Virus record (IMG/VR): IMGVR_UViG_3300012090_000181
DNA length: 64,000 nt
Direction: 5' to 3' (one strand)
Source of the DNA: a virus
Shown: positions 2,470 to 60,424 of the stretch, piece after piece
How the letters are laid out: every line of letters begins with the position of its first letter
Position numbering within the stretch: the first letter of the stretch is position 1
The notes under the pieces: generated by a model
Told to the model about the DNA's origin: nothing
The model's database searches: none
Seen by the model: the letters and a program-made list of their open reading frames with translations, nothing else
Program-made: the position numbers and the translations under genes

Positions 2470-2566
2470 CATCGGATTATAGCAGGTCGGCAAAATCATC
2501 AGTGTCGGCGGGAGTACCCGCCTGTTTCTACTTGCTTTCGGTACCAGCTGCTGCTATCCTCGTCTC

Positions 2567-3142
2567 ATGCCAGCTTCCCTTGACGATCTTGGTTCCGCGA
2601 TGAAGGATGGCCCTGAGCCGGTTGAACCTGGTGCCTCGGTTGAACCTGGTGCCTCGGTTGCCGGTATTCTCTATGGTCGAACTCAAGCCCGGAGCAGCAT
2701 CATCGAGCGCGTGGTCGAGAAGGTCATCGGAGCTGTTGATCCGAAAGCTTATGCGGTCACGCCATACTACCTGGCGATGCTGCATCTACTGTCGGCCGAG
2801 GAAGAACTACTGGTCGACGGTCGGGTGGAAAGGGTCATGGCCGGAACGATCTACAATGGCAATCAGCTGATCGTCGTCGATAAGGTCACACCAAAGGACA
2901 AGAGCGGCTTTATTCGCCCGCCCAGGCATTATCAAGAAATGGCAGGTCGGGTGACGCCGATAGATCCGGATACTGCATATCATCTCTGGCGAGCGGACAA
3001 AAAAGACCAGGAGGTCAGTCATATCGAGGTCACTGCTGCTGTCATCCGTGCCGACGGATCATTGCGACTGATGACCGAGGGCGGTGTCTTTCTTTCCTCC
3101 CCGGCCAGCTTCCGAGGTTTCAAGATCAGTCCGCTGACCTGA
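2567..3142 (+). CDS. ILYG-tagged family B protein
   Basis: VEPGASVEPGASVAGILYG; TATCCT 2555-2560 then 6 nt then ATG. Confidence 0.8.
   Translation: MPASLDDLGSAMKDGPEPVEPGASVEPGASVAGILYGRTQARSSIIERVVEKVIGAVDPKAYAVTPYYLAMLHLLSAEEELLVDGRVERVMAGTIYNGNQLIVVDKVTPKDKSGFIRPPRHYQEMAGRVTPIDPDTAYHLWRADKKDQEVSHIEVTAAVIRADGSLRLMTEGGVFLSSPASFRGFKISPLT
2619..2660 (+). repeat. In-frame 18-bp tandem repeat (VEPGAS x2) in tag leader
   Basis: cggttgaacctggtgcct occurs twice plus a partial third unit. Confidence 0.9.
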
Positions 3143-3189
3143 AGGCACCAATGTCTGCGCAAGTAAAAGGTTCAGTCTAGGATCTGTAT

Positions 3190-3678
3190 ATGGCACGCGG
3201 TAGCTCACATGGTTGTGATACTGGTGACGCGATCCTTTATGGTCGCCAAGAGCGCACTGCCGTGATCGAAACTATCGCGCAAGTCATCGGTGGGCATGAT
3301 ATTGAGGCTTATGCCGAGACCCCTTATCATCGACAGATGCAGATGATCCTGGAACAAGAGCAGGCTCTCGCCGGCTGGTTTCCGGTGGAGAGGATGGTCG
3401 AGGGAGTATATCGGGCCAGTCACCGTTTCGTCCAAAATCTCGCCATGGATCAGCGTCTGCTGATCATAGACAAACTGGATATTCCTACGGATACTGTTTT
3501 TGCCGTCTGGCATGCCTTACCAGACGATGCGGAGCCGACCCGAGAAGTGATCGACAGTAGCTCGATTACCGATGCCGGCTACGAGATATTCGGCGAAGAC
3601 CTGACCATCCGTTATCACACGAAGGGTGATTGGCTGACCTGTGCAGGCCGAACGGTCGAGCCATTGTTTGCCGACTGA
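3190..3678 (+). CDS. ILYG-tagged family B protein
   Basis: MARG...GDAILYG; YAETPYH and RLLIIDK match family B; TAGGAT 6 nt before ATG. Confidence 0.8.
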   Translation: MARGSSHGCDTGDAILYGRQERTAVIETIAQVIGGHDIEAYAETPYHRQMQMILEQEQALAGWFPVERMVEGVYRASHRFVQNLAMDQRLLIIDKLDIPTDTVFAVWHALPDDAEPTREVIDSSSITDAGYEIFGEDLTIRYHTKGDWLTCAGRTVEPLFAD

Positions 3679-3865
3679 AGCCACCTGTTTCTGAGGCACC
3701 CCTTGATAGTCATCCGATAGCCTGTCCGCATGACCGTAAGGCCACGTGCTGTTCTACTCCATATCGCTGGCCTATTTCATATATTATATGCGTTCAGCCA
3801 AGGTTGAAAAACATGGACAGCGAATACTCGGTCGCCGCCGTCGGCGCATGCGCTATGCTTCGATG

Positions 3866-4663
3866 ATGGACTTGATCGTGATCAAGCTGGGATCAAATAT
3901 CGTCTGTGATGCTGACGGCGAGATTAGAAGTACTGTGCTTGACACTGTCTGCGAGCAGATCGCCGAGCTGCAACAGGGCAGTAATCGCGTGATCATGGTC
4001 ACTTCGGGCGCGATCGCCCGTGGGCGGCATTCGCTCGGTATCGGTGACAAGCCTGAGGATCTGGCCAAGTTGCAGGCCTGCTCGGCCGTGGGCCAAGGTG
4101 ATCTGTTCCGACAATACGAGCGCAGACTGGCCGATCGCGGGATCTCCACAGCGCAGATACTGCTGACCTCCAGGGATCTGGAGTTGAGCATCGCCCGTGA
4201 CAACACCTCGACGACCCTGTCCCAGTTGCTGGAATGGGGCGTGGTCCCGGTCATCAACGAGAACGACACGACATCGACCGCCGAGATCACCTTCGGTGAC
4301 AATGACCTGTTGGCTGCCGAGATCAGCAGCCTGGTCAATGCCGATATGTTATTGCTGCTGACCAACACCGACGGTGTATTTTCTTCTGATCCTCGTGAGG
4401 ATCCGGATGCCGAGTTGGTTCCCAGGATCACCAGTCCAGAACAGCTGAAACAGGTCAAAGTAGGTGCTTCGCCGTCAGCTCATGGTTCCGGTGGCATGGC
4501 CAGTAAGTTGAAAGCAGCCGCACAGGCCTGCGCCGTCGGCACGGTCACGGTGATTTGCAATGGTGCTGATGAGCAGGCGATCACAGGTGCCGTCTGTGGT
4601 AAGCCCTCTGGCACGGTGATCTGCATCCCACCGGATCCTCCTTATCAAGCTCACAACCGATAA
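3866..4663 (+). CDS. proB: Glutamate 5-kinase, no PUA domain
   Basis: VIKLGSN, VTSGAI, SAVGQG, VPVINENDT, FGDNDLLAA, LLTNTDG, GSGGMASKL; TATGCT 3854-3859 then 6 nt then ATG 3866. Confidence 0.95.
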   Translation: MDLIVIKLGSNIVCDADGEIRSTVLDTVCEQIAELQQGSNRVIMVTSGAIARGRHSLGIGDKPEDLAKLQACSAVGQGDLFRQYERRLADRGISTAQILLTSRDLELSIARDNTSTTLSQLLEWGVVPVINENDTTSTAEITFGDNDLLAAEISSLVNADMLLLLTNTDGVFSSDPREDPDAELVPRITSPEQLKQVKVGASPSAHGSGGMASKLKAAAQACAVGTVTVICNGADEQAITGAVCGKPSGTVICIPPDPPYQAHNR

Positions 4664-4731
4664 GGCCACACAGTGCGAGCGGGATCATAAAATGAGTAGT
4701 TCCCTTGCAGCTCTTGCTTTATCATCAGCTC

Positions 4732-4977
4732 ATGTCGATTGCATACGAGCAGAACCTGCTGGCTGAGCAAGGTGTGTCTTTGGCCAAGGGCCTGATCATC
4801 GAAGAGATGCAGGCGGGATCCTCTGAGCGGACGCGAACAGACGTCGAGTTGGTCGTGGCCTTGAGCCTGCCGTACGAGCTTCTCCAGGCGGCCATCGAGG
4901 AGCTGGTCGATGAAGGCATCCTTGTGCATGAGGACACCGCCTCAGAAGGACGCATCTATCACCTGGCGAACAGCTAG
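4732..4977 (+). CDS. Small winged-helix-like protein
   Basis: LQAAIEELVDEGIL...RIYHL resembles a wHTH wing; TATCAT 4720-4725 then 6 nt then ATG 4732. Confidence 0.5.
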   Translation: MSIAYEQNLLAEQGVSLAKGLIIEEMQAGSSERTRTDVELVVALSLPYELLQAAIEELVDEGILVHEDTASEGRIYHLANS

Positions 4978-5099
4978 AGAGCTCATCTTACTTTTTATCT
5001 CGCTACGGTTAGTTTGCTTTTGATCAAATCTGACATCAGCGCTTGAACAAAATGTCATGGTACTCGGATAAATAGCCGCTAAATAGTTCTTTAGAGCAG

Positions 5100-5360
5100 A
5101 TGCTAGGAATTAAACTGACGATAATGCTTGCTCTTGCCTCTTTAGAGATAGAAGCTTCTTATGGAAATAATGAGCACCTGTATTTGGTAGGAGCTATCAG
5201 CCTAGTGATCCTCGTTCCTTCTCTCGTGTATGTGTTCAGCAGGATGAAGACGCAATCACGACGTAGTGCCAGCAAGTACACGCTAACTTCCGCATTATTC
5301 TTGGCTTTTTTGGTTTTCGGTTTTATCGCATATATCATAAATAAAGGCCTTTCGCACTAA
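5100..5360 (+). CDS. Small two-TM membrane protein (island family)
   Basis: LASLEIEASYG..H..ILVPSLVYVFSR..SRRSASKYTL; paralog of 5364 and 6339. Confidence 0.7.
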   Translation: MLGIKLTIMLALASLEIEASYGNNEHLYLVGAISLVILVPSLVYVFSRMKTQSRRSASKYTLTSALFLAFLVFGFIAYIINKGLSH

Positions 5361-5428
5361 CTGATGTCCTCTATCACGGATTTAGTCTCAAGTTATCTTT
5401 TTGCCTCTTTAGAGATAGAAGCTTCTTA
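5134..5428 (+). repeat. 28-bp direct repeat between adjacent paralogs
   Basis: ttgcctctttagagatagaagcttctta at 5134-5161 and 5401-5428. Confidence 0.9.
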
Positions 5429-5633
5429 CGGAAGCAATGTACACTGGTATGTGATGGGGACAGCCGGGTTGTTCATTTTGCTTCCTTCTATAGTCTACGT
5501 ACTCAGCAGAGCAAGGACACGTTCACGGCACAGTGCCCGCCGGTACACGCTAGCCTGCGTATTGATTTTGATCATTTTGCTACTTGCGGTTCTTTATCAC
5601 TTTCTGCATAATGGCCCTTCGCCTCCACACTGA
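5364..5633 (+). CDS. Small two-TM membrane protein (island family)
   Basis: FASLEIEASYGSNVHWY..LLPSIVYVLSR..SRHSARRYTL. Confidence 0.7.
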   Translation: MSSITDLVSSYLFASLEIEASYGSNVHWYVMGTAGLFILLPSIVYVLSRARTRSRHSARRYTLACVLILIILLLAVLYHFLHNGPSPPH

Positions 5634-5776
5634 TGACTGGTAGGTCTATCTCATTTACTGTTCAGGGCTATAAATAGTATCTATTCCATCTCGTCTTCCT
5701 GGTCAGTCCGCCCAAAATTTATTTCTGTATCCTACAAACATTCGTCTGGAACCACTGTACGGCATATATTATTCAG

Positions 5777-5959
5777 ATGGAGGGGATAGTCATTGGAACG
5801 ATCATTGTTTTTGGTTTTCTTATTGCTTACTTACTCGAACGCTATTCATATAAATCTTCTACACAAAAATCATTGTTGAATACTCTGTTCATCATATTGA
5901 TCGTACTGGCTATTTTGTATGTCATATTTGGTTTGGTAGTAAGCGGTTCTAATAATTAG
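5777..5959 (+). CDS. Small two-TM membrane protein
   Basis: Two hydrophobic helices around a KSSTQKSL loop; TATATT 6 nt before ATG; similar to 7087. Confidence 0.6.
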   Translation: MEGIVIGTIIVFGFLIAYLLERYSYKSSTQKSLLNTLFIILIVLAILYVIFGLVVSGSNN

Positions 5960-6338
5960 AAAGAAAATAACAATTGTGTTTATACCAAAGTTATTTATAA
6001 GATCTGCTATCTTTACTGTACTGATGCAGGTAATGATCTACATGTCTGCTGGAGAGCTTGGATCGTCTCTTGATGCGCAACTGCTTGCTATACGGCTTTG
6101 AGCTTTTACGGTAAATGATACCAGCGATCAATGGTTTACCGTTTTATGAATACTCATTGCCTGCGCCCTTGCTCCGGTTTTCTTCCCTGCCAGGATTTAT
6201 CCTCGGCCGGTCTGCACGATCAATTCTCTGCTTGGAAGAATAGCTCACGGTAATTCCGCTGGCGAGTCGTTGCTTTGCGCTCATATAGCAAATGCTAGAT
6301 AGTTCCTTCAACCAGGTACTCCGAACTACACTACGGTA

Positions 6339-6572
6339 GTGACTAGTCCTGGTTTGGTAGACATATTAGCTTCATATGGAAGCAAAGGACATTGGCGTTT
6401 GATAGAAGCCGTCAGCCTGATTATTCTCATTCCTTTGGTTATATATGTATTCAGTAGGGTAATGACCCAATCACGACGCAACGCCAGCAAGTATACTCTC
6501 ATTGTCACAATAATCATGACCATCGTGATATTTGGTTTTATCTTTTATATCCTGAGCAATGGACCATCGTGA
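6339..6572 (+). CDS. Small two-TM membrane protein (island family)
   Basis: ILASYGSKGHW..ILIPLVIYVFSR..SRRNASKYTL. Confidence 0.7.
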   Translation: MTSPGLVDILASYGSKGHWRLIEAVSLIILIPLVIYVFSRVMTQSRRNASKYTLIVTIIMTIVIFGFIFYILSNGPS

Positions 6573-6600
6573 TCACACTGACCACATGATCACACTGACC
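6570..6600 (+). repeat. 14-bp direct repeat
   Basis: tgatcacactgacc at 6570-6583 and 6587-6600. Confidence 0.9.
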
Positions 6601-6684
6601 GCGATTTGCAACGGTGCCGACGATTCCTCAGGTACGGTGATCTATATCCCGCCGAACCCGTCTTGGCCTGTTCGGGTTCTATAG
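6586..6684 (+). pseudogene. Degenerate copy of the proB 3' end (32-codon mini-ORF)
   Basis: Translates MITLTAICNGADDSSGTVIYIPPNPSWPVRVL; ProB ends VICNGADEQAITGAVCGKPSGTVICIPPDP. Confidence 0.7.
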
Positions 6685-6834
6685 CCGCGATTGCCTCTTT
6701 ACTCTGCTTGAGATAAGAACCGAGGATTGTGTGCCAGGCAGGTAAAACTGCATTTGATTTGATAACGTCATTATCTATTCTCAGATAGGCTAATAATTCT
6801 ATCTAAATCAAGTGCTCATATCATAACCATACGA

Positions 6835-7023
6835 ATGTATCCGGGCGCTATATTGATATTAGGAAGCATAGTTTTTGGGATCATTTATCTTCTCGTCTCT
6901 AGAGCGAGAAAAGATCCTGATAGATCCGATACGGCTAACATTATCACAATACTTATTTGTGTCGGAGTAATAGCTCTCGCCGGATACATATACTGGCTGC
7001 TTGCTATCGCGCTTCCAGATTGA
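6835..7023 (+). CDS. Small two-TM membrane protein
   Basis: Two hydrophobic helices around a charged loop. Confidence 0.6.
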   Translation: MYPGAILILGSIVFGIIYLLVSRARKDPDRSDTANIITILICVGVIALAGYIYWLLAIALPD

Positions 7024-7086
7024 ATTGCTTTGCGAGCAAAGCCTCAAATCTATTATCATCCATAGGCTTGAGACTAGAGTGCATAG

Positions 7087-7272
7087 ATGCTTGTTCTTAT
7101 CTTGACAGCAACCGTATTACTCGCCGGTATTATAACATACGTGGTATCCAAATATGGCGAGAAGTCTTCATCAAAGCAATCTCTAAAACAATCTAGTTAT
7201 GTGGCCATCGGTATTGTTCTCCTGATTGCCGGCTTTTTCCTCTATATAATAACAAGTGGAAAAGTAAATTGA
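7087..7272 (+). CDS. Small two-TM membrane protein
   Basis: Two TM helices, KSSSKQSL loop; TAGAGT 6 nt before ATG. Confidence 0.6.
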   Translation: MLVLILTATVLLAGIITYVVSKYGEKSSSKQSLKQSSYVAIGIVLLIAGFFLYIITSGKVN

Positions 7273-7481
7273 CTTGCAAACGCTGTAACTAGATGCTTTT
7301 ACTACAAGTTAGTTGAGCATAAAGTTTCCTGGCAAAAATTCATTTTACTGTCGGGCATTATTTAGCGTCCAACTATGCATGCGCTCATCGTAGCCGCTAT
7401 CATATTAGTTTCGAGCATTTTGATTTATATCGTACGAGCAAATCTTCGAAAATAAACCGCATCGTGGATAAACTGAATCCG

Positions 7482-8033
7482 ATGCAACCTGAAGAGATCC
7501 TCTATGGCTCTGCCCGAGCAACACGTCGGAAGCTGCTTCCTTATCATGAGCGCCCTCCGCTGCCATTGGATTCTGACAACACCGGCACGGCATCTGGGTG
7601 GTTCAAGGATAAAAGCGGCTGGCTCGGAACCGATAACTGGACAGCCAGGTCTCATACGCTGCCCGCTGAGTTTCGGCCGGCTCCGGGGCGCAGACAAGCT
7701 CAGTCGGACCTGAAACTGACCCAATATCCGCTTCGGTTCTTTGATACTACCGTGGTGGATTTCATCGCTCGTGTGGGAGCGCTGCGCGGGCAAGGCCTTC
7801 AGACCGTCGAGCTGCTGTATCGTCCAGCTGCCCCTGATGTAGTGCTTTTGCATCAGTATCAAGGGGATGAGCTGCTGCTTGTGCCGCTGGGTCTGGAAGT
7901 CTCCACAGCTCATCTGGCCGCAGTCGAGACGATACGCAGTCCTGGTAGCTGGATATTCGATCCCCGGCAACAGCTACTCTATCTGAAAGAAGCCGGAGCT
8001 GGTGTCATCAGCGGCATGGTTCGCTGCCGTTGA
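7482..8033 (+). CDS. ILYG-tagged family A protein
   Basis: MQPEEILYG; SGWLGTDNWTARSHTLP; HLAAVETI..GSW. Confidence 0.8.
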   Translation: MQPEEILYGSARATRRKLLPYHERPPLPLDSDNTGTASGWFKDKSGWLGTDNWTARSHTLPAEFRPAPGRRQAQSDLKLTQYPLRFFDTTVVDFIARVGALRGQGLQTVELLYRPAAPDVVLLHQYQGDELLLVPLGLEVSTAHLAAVETIRSPGSWIFDPRQQLLYLKEAGAGVISGMVRCR

Positions 8034-8250
8034 TGCTTATAAGCTTTCTGGCCCGACTGCATACATACTGCATGCATTTTATATGCATCATGCAGTCATA
8101 CAGCAGTGTTTTTACATGCAAAGTTCTAGAAAGCGGTGACTTGTCGCTGTGGTTCCATTTGGAGCGCCCTGCCGAGAAAAAGGCCGGGGTGAGACAGCAG
8201 CAACGGCTTCTGCTTGAACTACCTGCCTGGATCTGATATAGTCCGCATTC

Positions 8251-10041
8251 ATGAAAAACTTTTCGCAGCGTTTCAACTTGTCCAACGTCCTGTCCAACGT
8301 CCGGCCTATCGCCTGGGTCGGTCTGCTCCTGCTGATCGGCCTGTTCTTGATCGCCTGGTCGATTCGCCCGATCGGCCTGATCCATGGGCCGGCGATGATG
8401 CTCTGGAAATATCCTCTGATCTGGAAGGCTCCGCTGCTGATCTTCTTGATCCTGTTCGGCCTGGGTTCGCTTCCGCATCTGATCCGCAAACTGGCATCCG
8501 GTGACGGGAAAGACAAGCCCTCCGAAGGAGCTTCCCGATCCAGATCTGATGAAGATGGTTTCGGCTACGGTAGTAGCTATGACTACAACAGTTATCGCCG
8601 ACGCAGTCGTCGTGCCCGTCGGCCCTGGTTCCAGGTGCCGCTGATCGTCGCCTGTTTCGGGGCTTTCCTTGCCTTGATCGTCGCCTGCTGCACGGCCGGT
8701 GCGCTGACCGGGCGAGCGATCTATGAGCATTACCATTTCACCGACATCAAGCAACTACCGGCCAATGGTAGTGCTCGTCTGATTCCCAAGGAAGTCGCCG
8801 AAGTGATGGCCTCCAACGGCTTCAACTCTTCGACCTCCCGGTTGGCTCAGGCGCACATCGTCCTCGATAATGAAGGCAACCTCGACTGGACTTTCGGTCA
8901 GGTTCCGAATGGGACCTGGCGGCATTACACGGCGAGCACGCAGGGGATGGCGACCCTGAATGCCGGTTCCTCGGCGCGGGAACTGAAACTGACCAACAAG
9001 AATTTCGACATCTCACCTGATGTCCGTTGGAGTGACAACATCAAATGGCAGGCATACAAGCGACATTTCTTCACCGATGTCGCTGAAACCGTGTTCGTGC
9101 TGACCCCGAAAGGACAGCCACTGCTGCTGGCCCCTTACATCAAGTACACCGGCTTCTGGGTCAAGGTGCCGGAACTTGCCGGGGTCTATGAGGTCCATCC
9201 CGATGGCACCATCGAAGACCTCAGCCCGGAGCAGGCTGCGGCCCGCCCGGTGATCGTGGATTCCGGCCACCTGTTCCCGGAACAGCTGGCCAAGCGGGTC
9301 CAGGAATCATACCAGTACGCCGGTGGCATCTGGAACCGTTTCTTCAGCCATCATGATCAGACCGAGATCCAGAACACCGAGGGCAACCATCAGCCCTACC
9401 TGATGGACTTCGGCGAAGACGGGCCGAAATGGGTATCCACGGCCAAGCCGTATGGGAACTCTCATGCCACTGATGCCGTGTTCCTGACCGATACCGTCAC
9501 CGGAGAAACCGAAGTCTGGCATGTGCCCAAAGATCAGTCCTATACCGGGAATGTCAAAGCACTCGACATCGTACGCGGGCTGTCGATCCCTGGTATCACC
9601 TTCGCCGGGGGTGAAGAACTCGAAGGCAAGTTCAAGGCGATCGAGCCGCGCCCGATCATCGTCAACGGGGAACTCCAGTTCATGGTCTCGATCGTGCCTT
9701 CCTCCGAGAACACGGTGACCAAGACCGTGATCGTGGATGCCAAGACCAACAAGGCCGTGGCGATCTTCAACCACGATACCGATCCTGGCGCTGATCAGAA
9801 GTTGAAAGAATATCTGGAAACCGGCAAGCTGCCGAGCAACGGCCTCAGCGAGGTCACTTCAGAAGAACGTAGTGCTTCTGAAAGCGAAGAACGCAGTGAT
9901 GAAGAACAGCCCGCCGGCAGCAGCGAAGTCCCGGCCAAACCGACCGGGACGACGATGGCGACGATCGAAAAGCTGCTCGAAGAGACTGAAGCCCAGCAGC
10001 AGACGTTGCTTGAACTCCAGGCACAGCTGAAGAGTAAGTAA
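8251..10041 (+). CDS. Large membrane-anchored protein (3 N-terminal TM, large soluble domain, C-terminal coiled coil)
   Basis: 596-aa ORF with consistent GC-rich codon usage; no function recognised. Confidence 0.8.
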   Translation: MKNFSQRFNLSNVLSNVRPIAWVGLLLLIGLFLIAWSIRPIGLIHGPAMMLWKYPLIWKAPLLIFLILFGLGSLPHLIRKLASGDGKDKPSEGASRSRSDEDGFGYGSSYDYNSYRRRSRRARRPWFQVPLIVACFGAFLALIVACCTAGALTGRAIYEHYHFTDIKQLPANGSARLIPKEVAEVMASNGFNSSTSRLAQAHIVLDNEGNLDWTFGQVPNGTWRHYTASTQGMATLNAGSSARELKLTNKNFDISPDVRWSDNIKWQAYKRHFFTDVAETVFVLTPKGQPLLLAPYIKYTGFWVKVPELAGVYEVHPDGTIEDLSPEQAAARPVIVDSGHLFPEQLAKRVQESYQYAGGIWNRFFSHHDQTEIQNTEGNHQPYLMDFGEDGPKWVSTAKPYGNSHATDAVFLTDTVTGETEVWHVPKDQSYTGNVKALDIVRGLSIPGITFAGGEELEGKFKAIEPRPIIVNGELQFMVSIVPSSENTVTKTVIVDAKTNKAVAIFNHDTDPGADQKLKEYLETGKLPSNGLSEVTSEERSASESEERSDEEQPAGSSEVPAKPTGTTMATIEKLLEETEAQQQTLLELQAQLKSK

Positions 10042-10049
10042 AAGTAGTG

Positions 10050-10088
10050 GCGGGCAGGCCCGGGTAAGAATCTCGTAGGCCTGTCCGC
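10050..10088 (+). terminator. Stem-loop, probable terminator
   Basis: gcgggcaggcc...ggcctgtccgc inverted repeat just after stop 10041; no U-tract. Confidence 0.5.
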
Positions 10089-10129
10089 CGTACCTCTCTC
10101 AGACCGAAGTAAAGCACTATCATCATCTT

Positions 10130-10546
10130 ATGGACGGCGGTACAGAACACGATCTGGTTCCAGACGAGAGTGATGAGCAGATCGATGCTTCCATCCTGGC
10201 AGACCGCGCCGATGCCACCCCCGATGGCGATGCGATCCTCTACGGTCATGGCCGCGATGAGCAGACCGAGCAGCGTCGGGAGATCGACCGCCTGCGCAGA
10301 CAAGTAGAAGCCAAGGATAAGCAGTTGGCGATCTATAAGGAGCAGATGAAAAAGATCACTGCGAGCGTTGACCAGCTACAACAGCGTATCCAGGAGATGC
10401 AATATCATGCCTCACGGGCCGAGAAGAGACTTCATCGGCAGACGCAATACGCGGCCGCATCCAAGCAGCAGGAGAGCATCGCTGATGTAGATGATGAGCA
10501 GAATAAGAGTATCTTCTCGCGCGGCTTCTTCGGTTGGTTACGCTGA
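10130..10546 (+). CDS. ILYG-tagged coiled-coil protein
   Basis: GDAILYG, long heptad stretch, C-terminal SIFSRGFFGWLR; TATCAT 6 nt before ATG. Confidence 0.75.
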   Translation: MDGGTEHDLVPDESDEQIDASILADRADATPDGDAILYGHGRDEQTEQRREIDRLRRQVEAKDKQLAIYKEQMKKITASVDQLQQRIQEMQYHASRAEKRLHRQTQYAAASKQQESIADVDDEQNKSIFSRGFFGWLR

Positions 10547-10584
10547 GCTGTAGTTGATCATCTTGGCCCAGGACGGAAGCGAAT

Positions 10585-11580
10585 CTATTGCTGAGTAGAT
10601 AATGGCTGGAAATCCAGATCTGGATCGTCCCGCAGGAGCTGGTCGGCGGCGAACACACACCGTGCTTTTGGCTTGGCCGAGGCCGCCCTCGCTCCTTTCG
10701 GATCCGCCTGCTGCTGAATGTCCTCCTCTATCAGCCCGCGTTCTTCGAACTTCTTCCAGACCCCGACGGCATCATCTGACTGGACCCCGGAAGCGTGGAG
10801 TTTCATCCCGCGCGTGCGCATCCAGATGGCCGCAGTCTCATACATCACCGTCGCCAGTCCTTGACGACGATGATCGGCCATATCGGCATGGTCCTGGACC
10901 CGCTTGCCGTCTTGATAGTGTTGATCATACTGTCCGGACGAGACACGAACATAATCGATCAACGGTTTATCGACATGGAAGTCCTTGAACCGCTCATACT
11001 CCACCGAAGCCTCCTCGCCAAGCTCCCGACGACGGGTCTCCCAAGCTTCCAGCAGCTCTTGGTCGGCTGCGTTCTCGCGCCAGGCGAGTTCATCGTCGGC
11101 GGTGCGGAAACCATCGGTCCAATGGAAAGCTTCGAGCAGTTGCTCACGACTCCATTCTTCTTGTGGTTGCAACAGTTGCGCCCGTAGCTGCCAGTTGTGT
11201 CGTCCCAGCTCCCAGACCGAATAGGCGAAAGCATCCGGAAAGTAGGTCTCTGCCAGCTCTTTCGGCACGTAGGAGATCTTCAGGTATCCTGCAGGCCCGC
11301 TGTCGGTGTGCAGCTCGACCAGGTCAACGGTCCAGGCACTCTTGATCCCATCATCGATGTCGCGGTACAGCTCCATCCTCGCCGACACGCCTTTGGAGCT
11401 GATGCGATGAACGGTCCGCTCGTGAATGCAGGCCCGCGTCCTCTCCTCTGGATCAGGTAATGGCGCATGATGTGCGCTGCGCTCATCAGAGGATGTGAAC
11501 AGTCGCGACAGCTTCGAGCTATCCCGGCTGCTCCTGGGCCTGCCTTGATAAGCTACCGTGTCTGATCTGCCTCTGGCCAT
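10585..11580 (-). CDS. MARG-start protein with C-terminal GNAT-like domain
   Basis: HRRQGLATVMYE (acetyl-CoA motif A) then ASGVQSDDAVGVW; TACTTT 6 nt before ATG 11580. Confidence 0.6.
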   Translation of the reverse strand: MARGRSDTVAYQGRPRSSRDSSKLSRLFTSSDERSAHHAPLPDPEERTRACIHERTVHRISSKGVSARMELYRDIDDGIKSAWTVDLVELHTDSGPAGYLKISYVPKELAETYFPDAFAYSVWELGRHNWQLRAQLLQPQEEWSREQLLEAFHWTDGFRTADDELAWRENAADQELLEAWETRRRELGEEASVEYERFKDFHVDKPLIDYVRVSSGQYDQHYQDGKRVQDHADMADHRRQGLATVMYETAAIWMRTRGMKLHASGVQSDDAVGVWKKFEERGLIEEDIQQQADPKGARAASAKPKARCVFAADQLLRDDPDLDFQPLSTQQ

Positions 11581-11690
11581 ATGGTAAAAGTATATCAGCA
11601 CCGACGGCAAGATCAGGATTGCCGAAGTCGCCGTCTTCGTGGGGGACAAGGTAAACAGGCAATAAAAATTGAACTCACGAAGACAGGTAA

Positions 11691-12671
11691 ATGTCGTGCG
11701 CTGTTTTCAGCGCCTACGCTTTTATCATGTCGCCTGGTACGATGAAAACGGAAATCAGTGCTCATGACGAGATCATCTCGAGTCGATCGAGCCTGGTCAA
11801 GCCGGGTGAAACCAGTGATCGGCGGGCACCGGCATTCAGGGATGCCTGTGTATTGTATCCTTCCAGTTTGTTCAACCCGAGAGAAGTCGATGAACACTTT
11901 CGTGAAGAGTATGAAGCCGCGCAGCGGGTAGGCATGCAAGTGGCTCTGGTAGATGATGCATCCTTACGACAGCCTGGAACCCTGCGTCTTGGCAGCTTCA
12001 AGGATCGCAAGTTGTTCTACCGTGGCTGGATGTTGAACGAGCAGGAGTTCTCAGGCCTGGAGCAGGCGATCAACCAGGCACACAGCCAACTATTGACCGA
12101 TACCGATGACTACCTGCAGGCGCACTATCTACCCAACTGGTATCCATTGTTCGCCGAGCATACTCCATTCAGTGTCTGGGGCGATGCCGATGATCCTGAG
12201 GAGCTCTTGGCAGAGCTTCCGGGTGGGGCCGCGATCGTCAAGGATTACGTCAAGTCGTTCAAGCATCTGTGGGATGAAGCTTGCTATATCCGTGATACCG
12301 ATGATACCGTGGATGCGCTACGCGTGATCAACAAGTTCAAGGAGCTTCGGATCGAGATCCAGGGCGGACTGATCCTACGGCACTATGAGCCGCTCGGCGA
12401 TGAGTATCGCAGTTGGTGGCGTGATGGAGAGTGTCGTCTGGTCAGCGCTCATCCTGATACACCAGAGCTACTACCTCCTGATGATCTTGACCTGGATTTC
12501 CTCCGCGACAATGTCGCCGAACTTGATGCGCGGATGGTGACCATAGACCTGGCCAGGAACACCGAGACAAACGATTACCGGATAGTGGAGATCGGAGATG
12601 GCATGGTCAGTGATCGGCCGCAGAGCCTGGACCCGGAGGTCTTTTATCAACAGTTGTTCTTGACAGATTGA
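11691..12671 (+). CDS. ATP-grasp domain protein (R2K/DUF4343-like)
   Basis: YRGWML, YLPNWY, IVKDYVKSxKHxW, EYRxWW, TIDLA, IVEIGDGMVS; start uncertain. Confidence 0.7.
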   Translation: MSCAVFSAYAFIMSPGTMKTEISAHDEIISSRSSLVKPGETSDRRAPAFRDACVLYPSSLFNPREVDEHFREEYEAAQRVGMQVALVDDASLRQPGTLRLGSFKDRKLFYRGWMLNEQEFSGLEQAINQAHSQLLTDTDDYLQAHYLPNWYPLFAEHTPFSVWGDADDPEELLAELPGGAAIVKDYVKSFKHLWDEACYIRDTDDTVDALRVINKFKELRIEIQGGLILRHYEPLGDEYRSWWRDGECRLVSAHPDTPELLPPDDLDLDFLRDNVAELDARMVTIDLARNTETNDYRIVEIGDGMVSDRPQSLDPEVFYQQLFLTD

Positions 12672-12676
12672 CCTCC

Positions 12677-13321
12677 TCAGCTGCCATCTGGCACTTCTAC
12701 GTTGACACTGCCGATGATTTCCCCATCATAGACATAGACCAGCTCCCGGTAATAGTGAAAGTCATCTTCGGTCCCATGATGATAGAACTTCCAGCTGCCA
12801 TCGGTCGTGGTCAGCGTTTCCACTGCTGCCAACTGATCAAGGCCGGCGCTGAGGGTCTCGCCTGTAAGTATCCGTCTGAATGCCCCATTCGGGCCGGCGT
12901 GGTAAGGGCCGATGCCTGCGACCCTCCGCTTGATGTCGATACCATACTTGAAGTCGGTGAAGCCGCTGCTCCCTGCCGAGTATTCATCGAGCATCAGCTC
13001 AAGGTATTCTTGTTGCATCTCGACGACGTAAAGATCGATCGCGGTCGCATCATCGCTGATCCAAGCTTGAGGCAGAGCCTCCACTTTGGCCAGCCACTCG
13101 GTTCCGACTCCACTCCATCCATGGAAGTTTTCATAAGCTCCAGTTGGTAGTCCGGCCAGTTTCAGATTGACCTTCTCTACCCAACGATTATCCGACGACG
13201 GCCATGATGCCGTCTGTTTCGACCCTGGAGAGAAATCCCCATAAAGAATGGCATCGGCGTTGGCACCAGGTTCAACCGAGGGACCAGGTTCAGAGGATGG
13301 TATCATGTCAGGTTTCTTCAT
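12677..13321 (-). CDS. ILYG-tagged family A protein
   Basis: VEPGANADAILYG; GWSGVGTEWLAKVEALPQAW; QLAAVETL..GSWKFY. Confidence 0.8.
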   Translation of the reverse strand: MKKPDMIPSSEPGPSVEPGANADAILYGDFSPGSKQTASWPSSDNRWVEKVNLKLAGLPTGAYENFHGWSGVGTEWLAKVEALPQAWISDDATAIDLYVVEMQQEYLELMLDEYSAGSSGFTDFKYGIDIKRRVAGIGPYHAGPNGAFRRILTGETLSAGLDQLAAVETLTTTDGSWKFYHHGTEDDFHYYRELVYVYDGEIIGSVNVEVPDGS

Positions 13322-20081: not shown

Positions 20082-20672
20082 ATGGCCAGAGGACAGCAGA
20101 TGTCTACCGAACCTGGGGTTGACAGTATTCTCTATGGGGCTGCGGGGCCGCGACAGGCAATGGTTGTCGGTGAGCCCTGGAAAGATCTATATCCGGTGCT
20201 GACCCCTGAGACGACCGGAGTAGCCGAAGGCTGGTTCGAAGGTTATTCTGGTTGGTCTGGAACGGATTCTTGGATGGTACGCGCCGGCTCGTTGCCGACC
20301 GATTGGATCACTTTCGACGAGGCTGCCGTAGAGCTGGCCGTGGAGGAGACGCTTTTTGATGAGCGTTCTTCCTGGACCGGTGAGGAATGGGTCAACAAAC
20401 TACGCTCTTGTCGTCTCCAGCCCTGGGATGATGATCCTGCTGATCCCAAGATCGCCTTCATCTCCGAGCATGAGGATGATTTCACCATTCCGGTCAAGGC
20501 GGGCTCCGTCGCCGCCGTAGAGGCCCTGGCCGAGATAGAACTGGAGCATCCCGCAGAAGCCGAGTGGATGGTCGAAGAGCACGGTTGGTTCATGGCTTAT
20601 GTAGATGCCGACAAAGAGGTCTTTGGCTTGATATTCATGAACGGCAAAGATAATATCCTTGCTCGCGCCTGA
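20082..20672 (+). CDS. ILYG-tagged family A protein
   Basis: MARGQQ..EPGVDSILYG; GWSGTDSWMVRAGSLPTDW; TATGAT 6 nt before ATG 20082. Confidence 0.85.
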   Translation: MARGQQMSTEPGVDSILYGAAGPRQAMVVGEPWKDLYPVLTPETTGVAEGWFEGYSGWSGTDSWMVRAGSLPTDWITFDEAAVELAVEETLFDERSSWTGEEWVNKLRSCRLQPWDDDPADPKIAFISEHEDDFTIPVKAGSVAAVEALAEIELEHPAEAEWMVEEHGWFMAYVDADKEVFGLIFMNGKDNILARA

Positions 20673-20678
20673 CCGGTA

Positions 20679-21326
20679 TCACTCCACATTGATGTCGAGG
20701 ATGCCAAGCGGCTGCTCAAGGCCGGCGCGACGGCAGAACAGGTAATGCCGATTACGATACTCAGCATCAGGGTCATTGATCTGTGATACCACCCGCCACT
20801 CAAGCTCCGGTCCGGCCAACTGGGTAACCGCTGCCAGATGGTGCTGATCGACGATATAACTATCGACTTCGCTACGCAGCCTGACCTGATCCCATTCAGC
20901 TTCATCAGCGATCTGGCAGCGGTGCATACTGGCCCAGTACTTGGACGGATCAGTTACCAAGGCGATGATCCTGGCCGCGTCTCGTCGTAGGCCGTAGGCC
21001 CCGGTCGCCGGATGCTCATCATCTCGTTGCGGCAGCCAGGCCTCGGGTAATCCGGTGTTCTCAGAACCTGAGATCTCTGGAGCCACGCGAGCCATCCAGG
21101 CCAGGGTCCCGGACCAGCCCTCTACTCCATGAAAGGCGTCCACAACCGAGTGATATAGGTTCTCCGCACGAATGCCCTCTATCGGCCACCAGCCAGGGCG
21201 CTCAGGTTCAATCTGGTTTCTCTCACGCGGTGACAATCTGCCATAAAGAATGTTGTCGACATTGGCACCAGAGCCAGCATCATTCGGGCCGGCAATATCA
21301 TCGGCTGGGTTTCTTGCCCCGGGCAT
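20679..21326 (-). CDS. ILYG-tagged family A protein
   Basis: VDNILYG; GWSGTLAWMAR; HLAAVTQL; TATTAT 6 nt before ATG 21326. Confidence 0.8.
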   Translation of the reverse strand: MPGARNPADDIAGPNDAGSGANVDNILYGRLSPRERNQIEPERPGWWPIEGIRAENLYHSVVDAFHGVEGWSGTLAWMARVAPEISGSENTGLPEAWLPQRDDEHPATGAYGLRRDAARIIALVTDPSKYWASMHRCQIADEAEWDQVRLRSEVDSYIVDQHHLAAVTQLAGPELEWRVVSQINDPDAEYRNRHYLFCRRAGLEQPLGILDINVE

Positions 21327-35585: not shown

Positions 35586-36059
35586 ATGAGAGGCACTGGA
35601 ACGACTTCGCCGGCAGAAGCCTTCCCCGAGGAGATCCTCTACGGGTCGATCCATCGTGAAGGGCCGCCGCCTGCGTCGATGCCCGAGCTTCCGACGGCTC
35701 CGAAGCGGGCCACGATCCAAGATCTTTCCGAGATCCCGACCCAGGTGATCGACACCTTCAATGATCTTCTGCTGGAGAAATATACCGGCGGCTCCGTCTC
35801 GGCGATCATCAGCCTAGATGAGCTTACGGAGAGATTGCAACCACTCGGGATCGAGGTCGAACAGGCGCTGGACTGGGGCTGGATGGACATCGACCGCCTC
35901 TATGTCCGTCGTGGCTGGCATGTCGAGTATGGTGTCTTCGAGGCCGATGATCATCACGTCGTGGCTGGCATGTCGAGTATGGTGTCTTCGAGGCCGATGA
36001 TCATCATCTGGTCGGCTGGAAGTTCAGCGATCCCAAGTATCGTTGAACTCATCAAGTGA
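35586..36059 (+). CDS. ILYG-tagged phage-type protein with frameshifted C-terminus
   Basis: MRGTG...PEEILYG; IPTQVIDTFN..WMDIDRLY..GWHVEY; TACAAT 6 nt before ATG. Confidence 0.75.
   Translation: MRGTGTTSPAEAFPEEILYGSIHREGPPPASMPELPTAPKRATIQDLSEIPTQVIDTFNDLLLEKYTGGSVSAIISLDELTERLQPLGIEVEQALDWGWMDIDRLYVRRGWHVEYGVFEADDHHVVAGMSSMVSSRPMIIIWSAGSSAIPSIVELIK
35907..36006 (+). repeat. Exact 50-bp tandem duplication
   Basis: 35907-35956 identical to 35957-36006. Confidence 0.95.
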
Positions 36060-60032: not shown

Positions 60033-60112
60033 GAGACCAGGATAGCAAAGATCCCTGTATCTGCTGATGTTGCATATGGCGAAAGGCGGCTCCAGAAAAG
60101 CGCCTGCTCTGA

Positions 60113-60424
60113 TCAGCGATCTTCTAGCTTGTCGATCCGGCGAGGGCTGATCTTTTTGGTGACGATAAAACTGGTGCCTCCTTCGGTGGCAAAGTCCTCG
60201 ACCATCTGCGGATCCAATCCTTCGGCATCGATCTCATATACGAAGCCACCATACTCTCCGGCCTCGTCTGCACTGTCGGTCAGGTATACGGCTCGCTTCT
60301 CGCCGCCGGTCAAACCTGTATCATACGGGGTCAGGCCGCGCTTGTCGGCTTCTGAATAGTTGGTACCATGATATAAGCGTGGCACCATGTTCTTCGGCTG
60401 ATCGCCTCCCTGTCCTCGTCCCAT
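60113..60424 (-). CDS. MGRG-start small ART-fold-like protein
   Basis: LYHGT..RGL..VYLT..AGEYG.FVYEI; paralog of 37147; TATCCT 6 nt before ATG. Confidence 0.55.
   Translation of the reverse strand: MGRGQGGDQPKNMVPRLYHGTNYSEADKRGLTPYDTGLTGGEKRAVYLTDSADEAGEYGGFVYEIDAEGLDPQMVEDFATEGGTSFIVTKKISPRRIDKLEDR

Follow-up and report, generated by a model that had tools for sequence, protein, structure and literature searches.

A short repeat unit probably copied at the DNA level between leaders of ILYG-tagged genes with unrelated bodies

Introduction

Coding minisatellites undergo concerted evolution through slippage and interlocus gene conversion. Type III secreted effectors reportedly undergo terminal reassortment, a process ascribed to them by Stavrinides, Ma and Guttman in 2006, in which N-terminal targeting regions are said to be shared at the DNA level between unrelated bodies as a result of recombination. 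A conserved leader of another kind, the phytoplasma sequence-variable mosaic (SVM) signal, corresponds to Pfam family PF12113 (PMC6638208). Here we describe a patch of nearly identical DNA in the leaders of two genes, 2567 and 13321, within a 64,000-nucleotide stretch, IMG/VR virus record IMGVR_UViG_3300012090_000181 (the window, to which all coordinates without a prefix refer). Both leaders carry an N-terminal ILYG motif, referred to here as the tag. Usually together with an M-G/A-R-G start, this tag occurs on dozens of orphan proteins of the lineage; the leader, acidic rather than hydrophobic, has no Pfam match, and no mention of an ILYG tag was found in the literature searched.

The locus resembles each of the described systems in part. 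As in terminal reassortment, DNA is shared in the N-terminal region between genes with unrelated bodies; however, type III effectors have the promoter and the whole N-terminal signal in common up to a junction, whereas sharing here is limited to an internal spacer patch of 30-50 nt, with unlike 5' ends and in two families that both had the tag beforehand, and the sorting role of the ILYG leader is putative. The resemblance to the SVM signal is that of one conserved N-terminal leader borne by a range of small, divergent proteins of a reduced genome, but SVM is a classical Sec signal peptide, whereas the ILYG leader is acidic and what the genes have in common here is a repeat lying before the motif rather than the motif. 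Like coding minisatellites, the patch is built from an in-frame 18-nt unit with perfect recent copies, several loci, shuffled order and identity confined to the repeat; unlike the usual minisatellites, its arrays are very short (1.7-3 units), always stop two codons short of a sorting-type motif, in one register, and occur only in the leaders of tagged genes. We consider it probable that this spacer unit was copied at the DNA level between leaders of genes that were already tagged, with slippage following, and that the event was not a transfer of the tag.

Housekeeping genes are present on the replicon, a contig of 1.1 Mb, about 105 kb of which were examined. The best matches to its CysS are Solirubrobacterales metagenome-assembled genomes (MAGs) at only 51-59% identity, which points to a distant, small-genome member of the Actinomycetota as the host. 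About 0.95 Mb of Solirubrobacterales MAGs held no ILYG tags beyond two chance-like matches; JGI sample 3300018432 and one Logan run contain tagged relatives.

Results

Gene 2567 (2567..3142, + strand; family B, alignment A2) encodes 191 aa with ILYG from residue 34, its start being fixed by the extended -10 box that lies 6 nt before it, and gene 13321 (12677..13321, - strand; protein P0001 of family A, alignment A1) encodes 214 aa with ILYG from residue 25. An earlier note on this DNA, made from the sequence alone, had claimed that 2624-2653 (+) and the reverse complement of 13262-13291 agree at 29/30 nt. Both strings lie at those coordinates with that identity, and adding one base gives a 30/31-nt match (2623..2653, + strand, against 13262..13292, - strand), which in gene 13321 comprises a first unit with one mismatch (EPGPSV) and the first 12 nt of a second. 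The note's peptides, VEPGASVAGILYG and VEPGANADAILYG, were likewise correct, as was its placing of the patch just upstream of ILYG: a gap of exactly 12 nt separates the end of each patch from the ILYG codons, which read ATT CTC TAT GGT in gene 2567 (2666..2677, + strand) and ATT CTT TAT GGG in gene 13321 (13238..13249, - strand). With the exception of these codons, identity outside the patch is random on both flanks.

Self-BLASTN of the window gave the match an E value of 2e-7, third among dispersed matches, and the 18-nt unit, at up to 3 mismatches, was found four times in the window against 0.05 expected, a count reached in 0/100 shuffles. The DNA between start codon and tag was also compared all-versus-all among 36 tagged genes, of which 35 lie in the window and one encodes P0124, a family A protein described below; the genes with EPG repeats were the sole outlier, with scores of 27 (the patch of genes 2567 and 13321), 16 and 16, against maxima of 9-15 in 20 rounds of codon-shuffled leaders. 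A chance origin is rejected by these three results. An assembly artefact is rejected too: the assembler k-mer to which the ENA contig name (k141) points greatly exceeds the patch in length, and an independent assembly, Logan SRR6448512, the only other one, is 100% identical over 12.8 kb.

The patch consists of an 18-nt tandem unit, in frame, encoding EPG(A/P)SV. Tandem Repeats Finder (TRF) reports a period of 18, head to tail and a multiple of 3, both in the window and in L003, another locus of the same contig. In the leader of gene 2567 the unit GAACCTGGTGCCTCGGTT (EPGASV) forms a perfect array of 2.3 copies (2619..2660, + strand; TRF, 100% matches, score 84; also found by repeat search), and the array of gene 13321 has 1.7 copies (13262-13292). 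Given this repetitiveness, the independent information in the patch amounts to about one 18-nt unit and a shared register, not 30 free bases. Five of the six unit codons are minor ones in this genome (GAA, 0.38; CCT, 0.25; GGT, 0.23; TCG, 0.18; GTT, 0.11), and the silent sites of the unit agree beyond the expectation from codon bias, the probability of the same nine codons given the same peptide being ~4e-6. Convergence at the peptide level is thus very unlikely and was rejected.

A third carrier emerged from a profile search with alignment A1 (18 window genes) against 1.84 billion representatives, which returned 125 family A matches, ~107 of them outside the window. A motif of the form [ILVM][LIM][YF]G lies within the first 70 residues of 115 of the 125 (window genes included), and an MGRG, MARG or MRG start is common among them. 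The EPG repeat is found only in P0001 and in P0124, the sole carrier among the ~107 representatives outside the window. P0124 (L003:10001-10639, with its real start at the MGRG at 10052) lies with the window on one contig of 1,102,766 bp. Three 18-nt units make up its array (L003:10082-10138); the last of them matches the window unit at 17/18 nt, and two codons separate it from ILYG. Over the 24 nt before the tag, gene 2567 and P0124 are identical at 21 positions, the mean over 946 pairs being 8.1 (sd 2.4). All three arrays align collinearly and end two codons before ILYG, and among the best units of the three genes position 10 is the only variable base (G, C or T, giving Ala, Pro or Ser). This variation led us to consider a diversity-generating retroelement, which was set aside, as the remaining unit differences are not adenine-specific, although no search for a reverse transcriptase was made. 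The P0124 body alone matches a body-only family A profile (E = 9e-7), which identifies it as a divergent family A member.

The unit is present in three of ~45 tagged genes sampled in this genome. It was not found in 0.95 Mb of the nearest named relatives, nor in the contigs of tagged relatives scanned for tags. An extra 20 kb around the window added six more tagged genes and no further unit, with no tagged genes in the 10 kb upstream. A search for the unit junction in JGI metagenome contigs and IMG/VR gave 0 matches and did not recover the window itself either.

Related EPG, PGV and GAD leaders, listed in the earlier note at 20082, 52704, 56492 and 60032, all exist, but only the first shares DNA with the unit: family A gene 20082 has EPGVDS before ILYG (20109..20126, + strand; leader comparison), with ~9 nt in common, and looks like a short form of the unit with two codons missing. 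The PGVDS of gene 52704 is written in codons different from those of the unit, and GAD leaders fit the general tag consensus (A at -3, D/E at -2), of which EPG is no part. In the tag-anchored comparison (mean 8.1, sd 2.4), the leader of family A gene 21326, GSGANVDN before ILYG (21252..21275, - strand), matches the second unit and linker of gene 13321 at 16/24 nt. The same second unit and linker match at 18/24 nt, largely in common codons, the leader of P0126 (EAGTNADS before ILYG), a tagged winged-helix-like protein ~9 kb past the window end (L087:16391-16813). The spacer from start to ILYG ranges from 4 to ~48 residues and leaders are of low confidence in AlphaFold2 (AF2) models, so insertions are plausibly tolerated.

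Beyond the leader, families A and B are unrelated by profile comparison. As the earlier note had maintained, there is no similarity past the tag: hhalign aligned 19 tag columns only and gave the bodies alone a probability of 0.1%, which does not support the single family that the note had named as the case against its own proposal. Fold searches produced non-overlapping lists, sliding-clamp-like for family A (Z up to 3.9) and small beta-barrels for family B (Z 5-6), with no convincing match for either, and the order of predicted secondary structure differs between the AF2 models. These models are of moderate quality (pLDDT 71 for family A and 60 for family B), which leaves some room for a common fold, though there is no evidence that A and B are one family. 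Word-based protein searches with the products of genes 13321 and 2567, and with the 2567 leader by itself, returned the query only or nothing; the clustered collection lacks the exact 2567 protein. At the curated threshold 19/20 proteins scanned had no Pfam match. One weak, sub-threshold Pfam match marks an untagged GNAT-like gene (10585-11649).

The bodies are also old. In the family A body tree the end branches reach ~2 substitutions per site, which is saturation, and the topology is not resolved. The P0001 body aligns over its full length with P0040 (26%, E = 1e-9), whose N-terminus reads on L005, a contig of another species (GC 47%), whereas the leader is the only part of P0001 that aligns with P0124. 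With bodies saturated and that of P0001 nearer to the foreign P0040 than to P0124, the paralogues predate the species split. The unit, nearly identical and confined to this genome, is young.

Whether the leader moved as a whole bears on the earlier note's proposal that such movement recruits new cargo. Under this explanation entire leaders, ILYG included, would pass between genes as in terminal reassortment and tag new cargo, and that of gene 2567 would derive from a family A gene. Several features fit. The leader of gene 2567 is unlike those of its paralogues, having no M-x-R-G start and 33 residues before ILYG; once one perfect copy is collapsed, 2567 and P0124 are collinear from the unit through the ILYG codons (~36/42 nt); and the likeness between 13321 and P0126 crosses families. 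The 5' ends tell otherwise. Gene 2567 has an extended -10 box of its own, TGCTATCCT (2550..2558, + strand; upstream alignment of 40 starts), which gene 13321 does not share and which stands close enough to the start to imply a leaderless mRNA. The ATG of gene 13321 lies 3 nt past the stop of gene 13972, with AGGAG upstream and no promoter of its own; promoter and start are thus not common to the two genes. The DNA on both sides of the patch, including the promoter, the start and the first 10-19 codons (19 in the case of 2567), which are unrelated between the two genes, has no match in the ~105 kb examined from this genome, except for the promoter box. Terminal reassortment would leave a single junction up to which promoter, start and N-terminal signal agree, and none was found. 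Such boxes (TGCTATCAT-like or TGCTATCCT) precede the ATG by 5-7 nt in most tagged genes (for example, 2550-2558 and 60041-60049), implying leaderless mRNAs for these as well. The promoter and start regions of genes 2567 and 60032 are 17/18 identical.

The tag itself also argues against a whole-leader exchange. ILYG is present in 5/5 family B and 18/18 family A window genes and is old in family A, and gene 2567 keeps the B-type ILYGR of its four paralogues, in which its EPG repeat aligns to gaps (A2). The tag was therefore in both families before the patch arrived. Identity across the ILYG codons, moreover, is expected in any case, these codons being constrained in all tagged genes. We therefore regard transfer of the whole leader as unlikely, and recruitment of new cargo is not borne out here: it is possible in general, with no example of it in this patch.

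Selection offers a different account, in which the unit was kept because it lengthens the tag at the peptide level, for example by a second site of recognition or cleavage, or because it is a motif in mRNA or DNA, and its identity reflects constraint. Tag codons, surveyed in the window and at L003, L087, L005, L088 and L089, are indeed strongly constrained at synonymous sites. In 35/36 window tags CTY encodes the Leu of ILYG (CTY being 30% of Leu codons overall and 37% before Tyr/Phe; P ~8e-18), as it does in 43/45 tags when the other loci of this genome are added; the Ile is ATY, with ATT enriched (37% vs 7%), and the Gly codon is unconstrained. Since another species shows the same bias (CTY in 8/10 tags vs a background of 26%), it is clade-wide selection on the silent sites of the tag and not recent copying, and the idea that it signals gene conversion was dropped. 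This constraint, which may act at the level of mRNA, DNA or decoding, is the main reason why selection on the unit retains a small probability; that silent sites are fixed while position 10 alone varies among the three best units agrees with it. The scarcity of the unit does not: it occurs in three of ~45 tagged genes sampled and in one of the ~107 family A representatives outside the window, and EPG stands outside the tag consensus. Copy number and unit order vary between genes, folding of the three mRNAs over their 5' 124 nt is not stronger than in shuffled sequences (z -0.13, +0.87 and -0.27), and Rfam gave no match anywhere in the window. On balance we hold selection as the source of the identity to be improbable.

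Vertical descent from one old superfamily, with the leader as an inherited remnant, draws on the tag and similar size of both families and on the fold question left by the moderate models, but is highly improbable in view of the body comparisons above, the relatives without the unit and the inability of thirty near-identical bases to survive where bodies are saturated.

Some further features of this genome were recorded. A look-alike of the unit (15/18, that is, 3 mismatches) at 60375-60392, probably due to chance, falls out of frame within an untagged gene; the gene (60119-60424, - strand) encodes a protein of ~100 aa with an MGRG start, no ILYG and the motifs LYHGT, VYLT and YEI, and the look-alike is in its leader. 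Perfect recent tandem duplications were found of 18 nt (2619-2660) and of 50 nt (35907-36006). The latter lies inside the tagged gene 35586-36059 and, its length not being divisible by 3, shifts the C-terminal frame, so that the product has 157 aa with the duplication and would have 136 aa with a single copy. A match of 33 nt at 97% (5134-5166 vs 5401-5433) joins two adjacent small open reading frames (5100-5360 and 5364-5633), probably a recent paralogue pair. Far from the window on the same contig are a type I-E-like CRISPR-Cas system (Cas1, Cas2, Cas3 and Cse1) with repeat arrays (L003:13291-20639) and a TnpB-like gene (L003:829-2727).

Discussion

Copying of the spacer unit between leaders that were already tagged accounts for a tract whose identity stands far above that of both flanks (30/31 nt in random flanks), whose copies lie in one genome and which is younger than the genes that carry it. 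In this scheme, a minisatellite-like, in-frame 18-nt EPG-x-S-V unit would occupy the length-tolerant spacer between the N-terminus and ILYG. It would have originated in the leaders of family A genes of this genome and been copied from there into other leaders, that of family B gene 2567 included, through short-tract ectopic recombination or replication template switching. Tag-coding DNA (ATY CTY TAY GG) may have served as the anchor; being the only sequence in common nearby, it favours template switching or short-patch repair over classical conversion. The arrays would then have grown and diverged by slippage, leaving perfect copies in gene 2567 and older, diverged copies in P0124. We infer the copying mechanism, the A-to-B direction and the status of the repeat as a merely tolerated, disordered spacer from these comparisons.

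Four points weigh against this reconstruction. First, homology that could prime an exchange consists downstream of the 11-12 nt of tag codons alone and is absent upstream: there is no long flanking homology for classical RecA-dependent conversion, and the upstream junction is without common sequence. Second, unit order differs, gene 13321 having an SV-type unit followed by an N-type unit and P0124 an N-type followed by an SV-type; a single copying event is too simple a history for this, which suggests more than one. Third, nucleotide-level selection acts in the leaders, as the clade-wide synonymous constraint in tag codons shows, and may extend to the unit. Fourth, ~105 kb of 1.1 Mb were examined, so that further carriers and a full-length donor leader may exist and the proposed direction of copying is tentative. 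The earlier note's suggestion that the leader moves between genes by recombination or gene conversion holds in that the identity is at the DNA level, joins genes with unrelated bodies and is best explained by intragenomic copying; it does not hold for the leader as a whole, as only an internal spacer patch is in common.

More tentatively, the tag-coding motif could be a recombination anchor at which leader segments are actively and repeatedly exchanged among tagged genes, with the EPG unit as a footprint of this traffic. We think this doubtful; if true, an actinobacterial lineage with small genomes would have a cassette-like way of building and renewing the repertoire of an N-terminal sorting tag not described before.

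The copied unit is a first concrete trace of recombination among ILYG leaders, acquisition of the tag by new cargo not being demonstrated by it. It indicates that the stretch before the tag is modular, tolerating insertions of 6-18 residues and exchanging DNA between genes with unrelated bodies. A modular leader would imply that the tag works as a short linear motif at whatever distance it stands from the N-terminus, and this would be useful in designing tag-transfer experiments.

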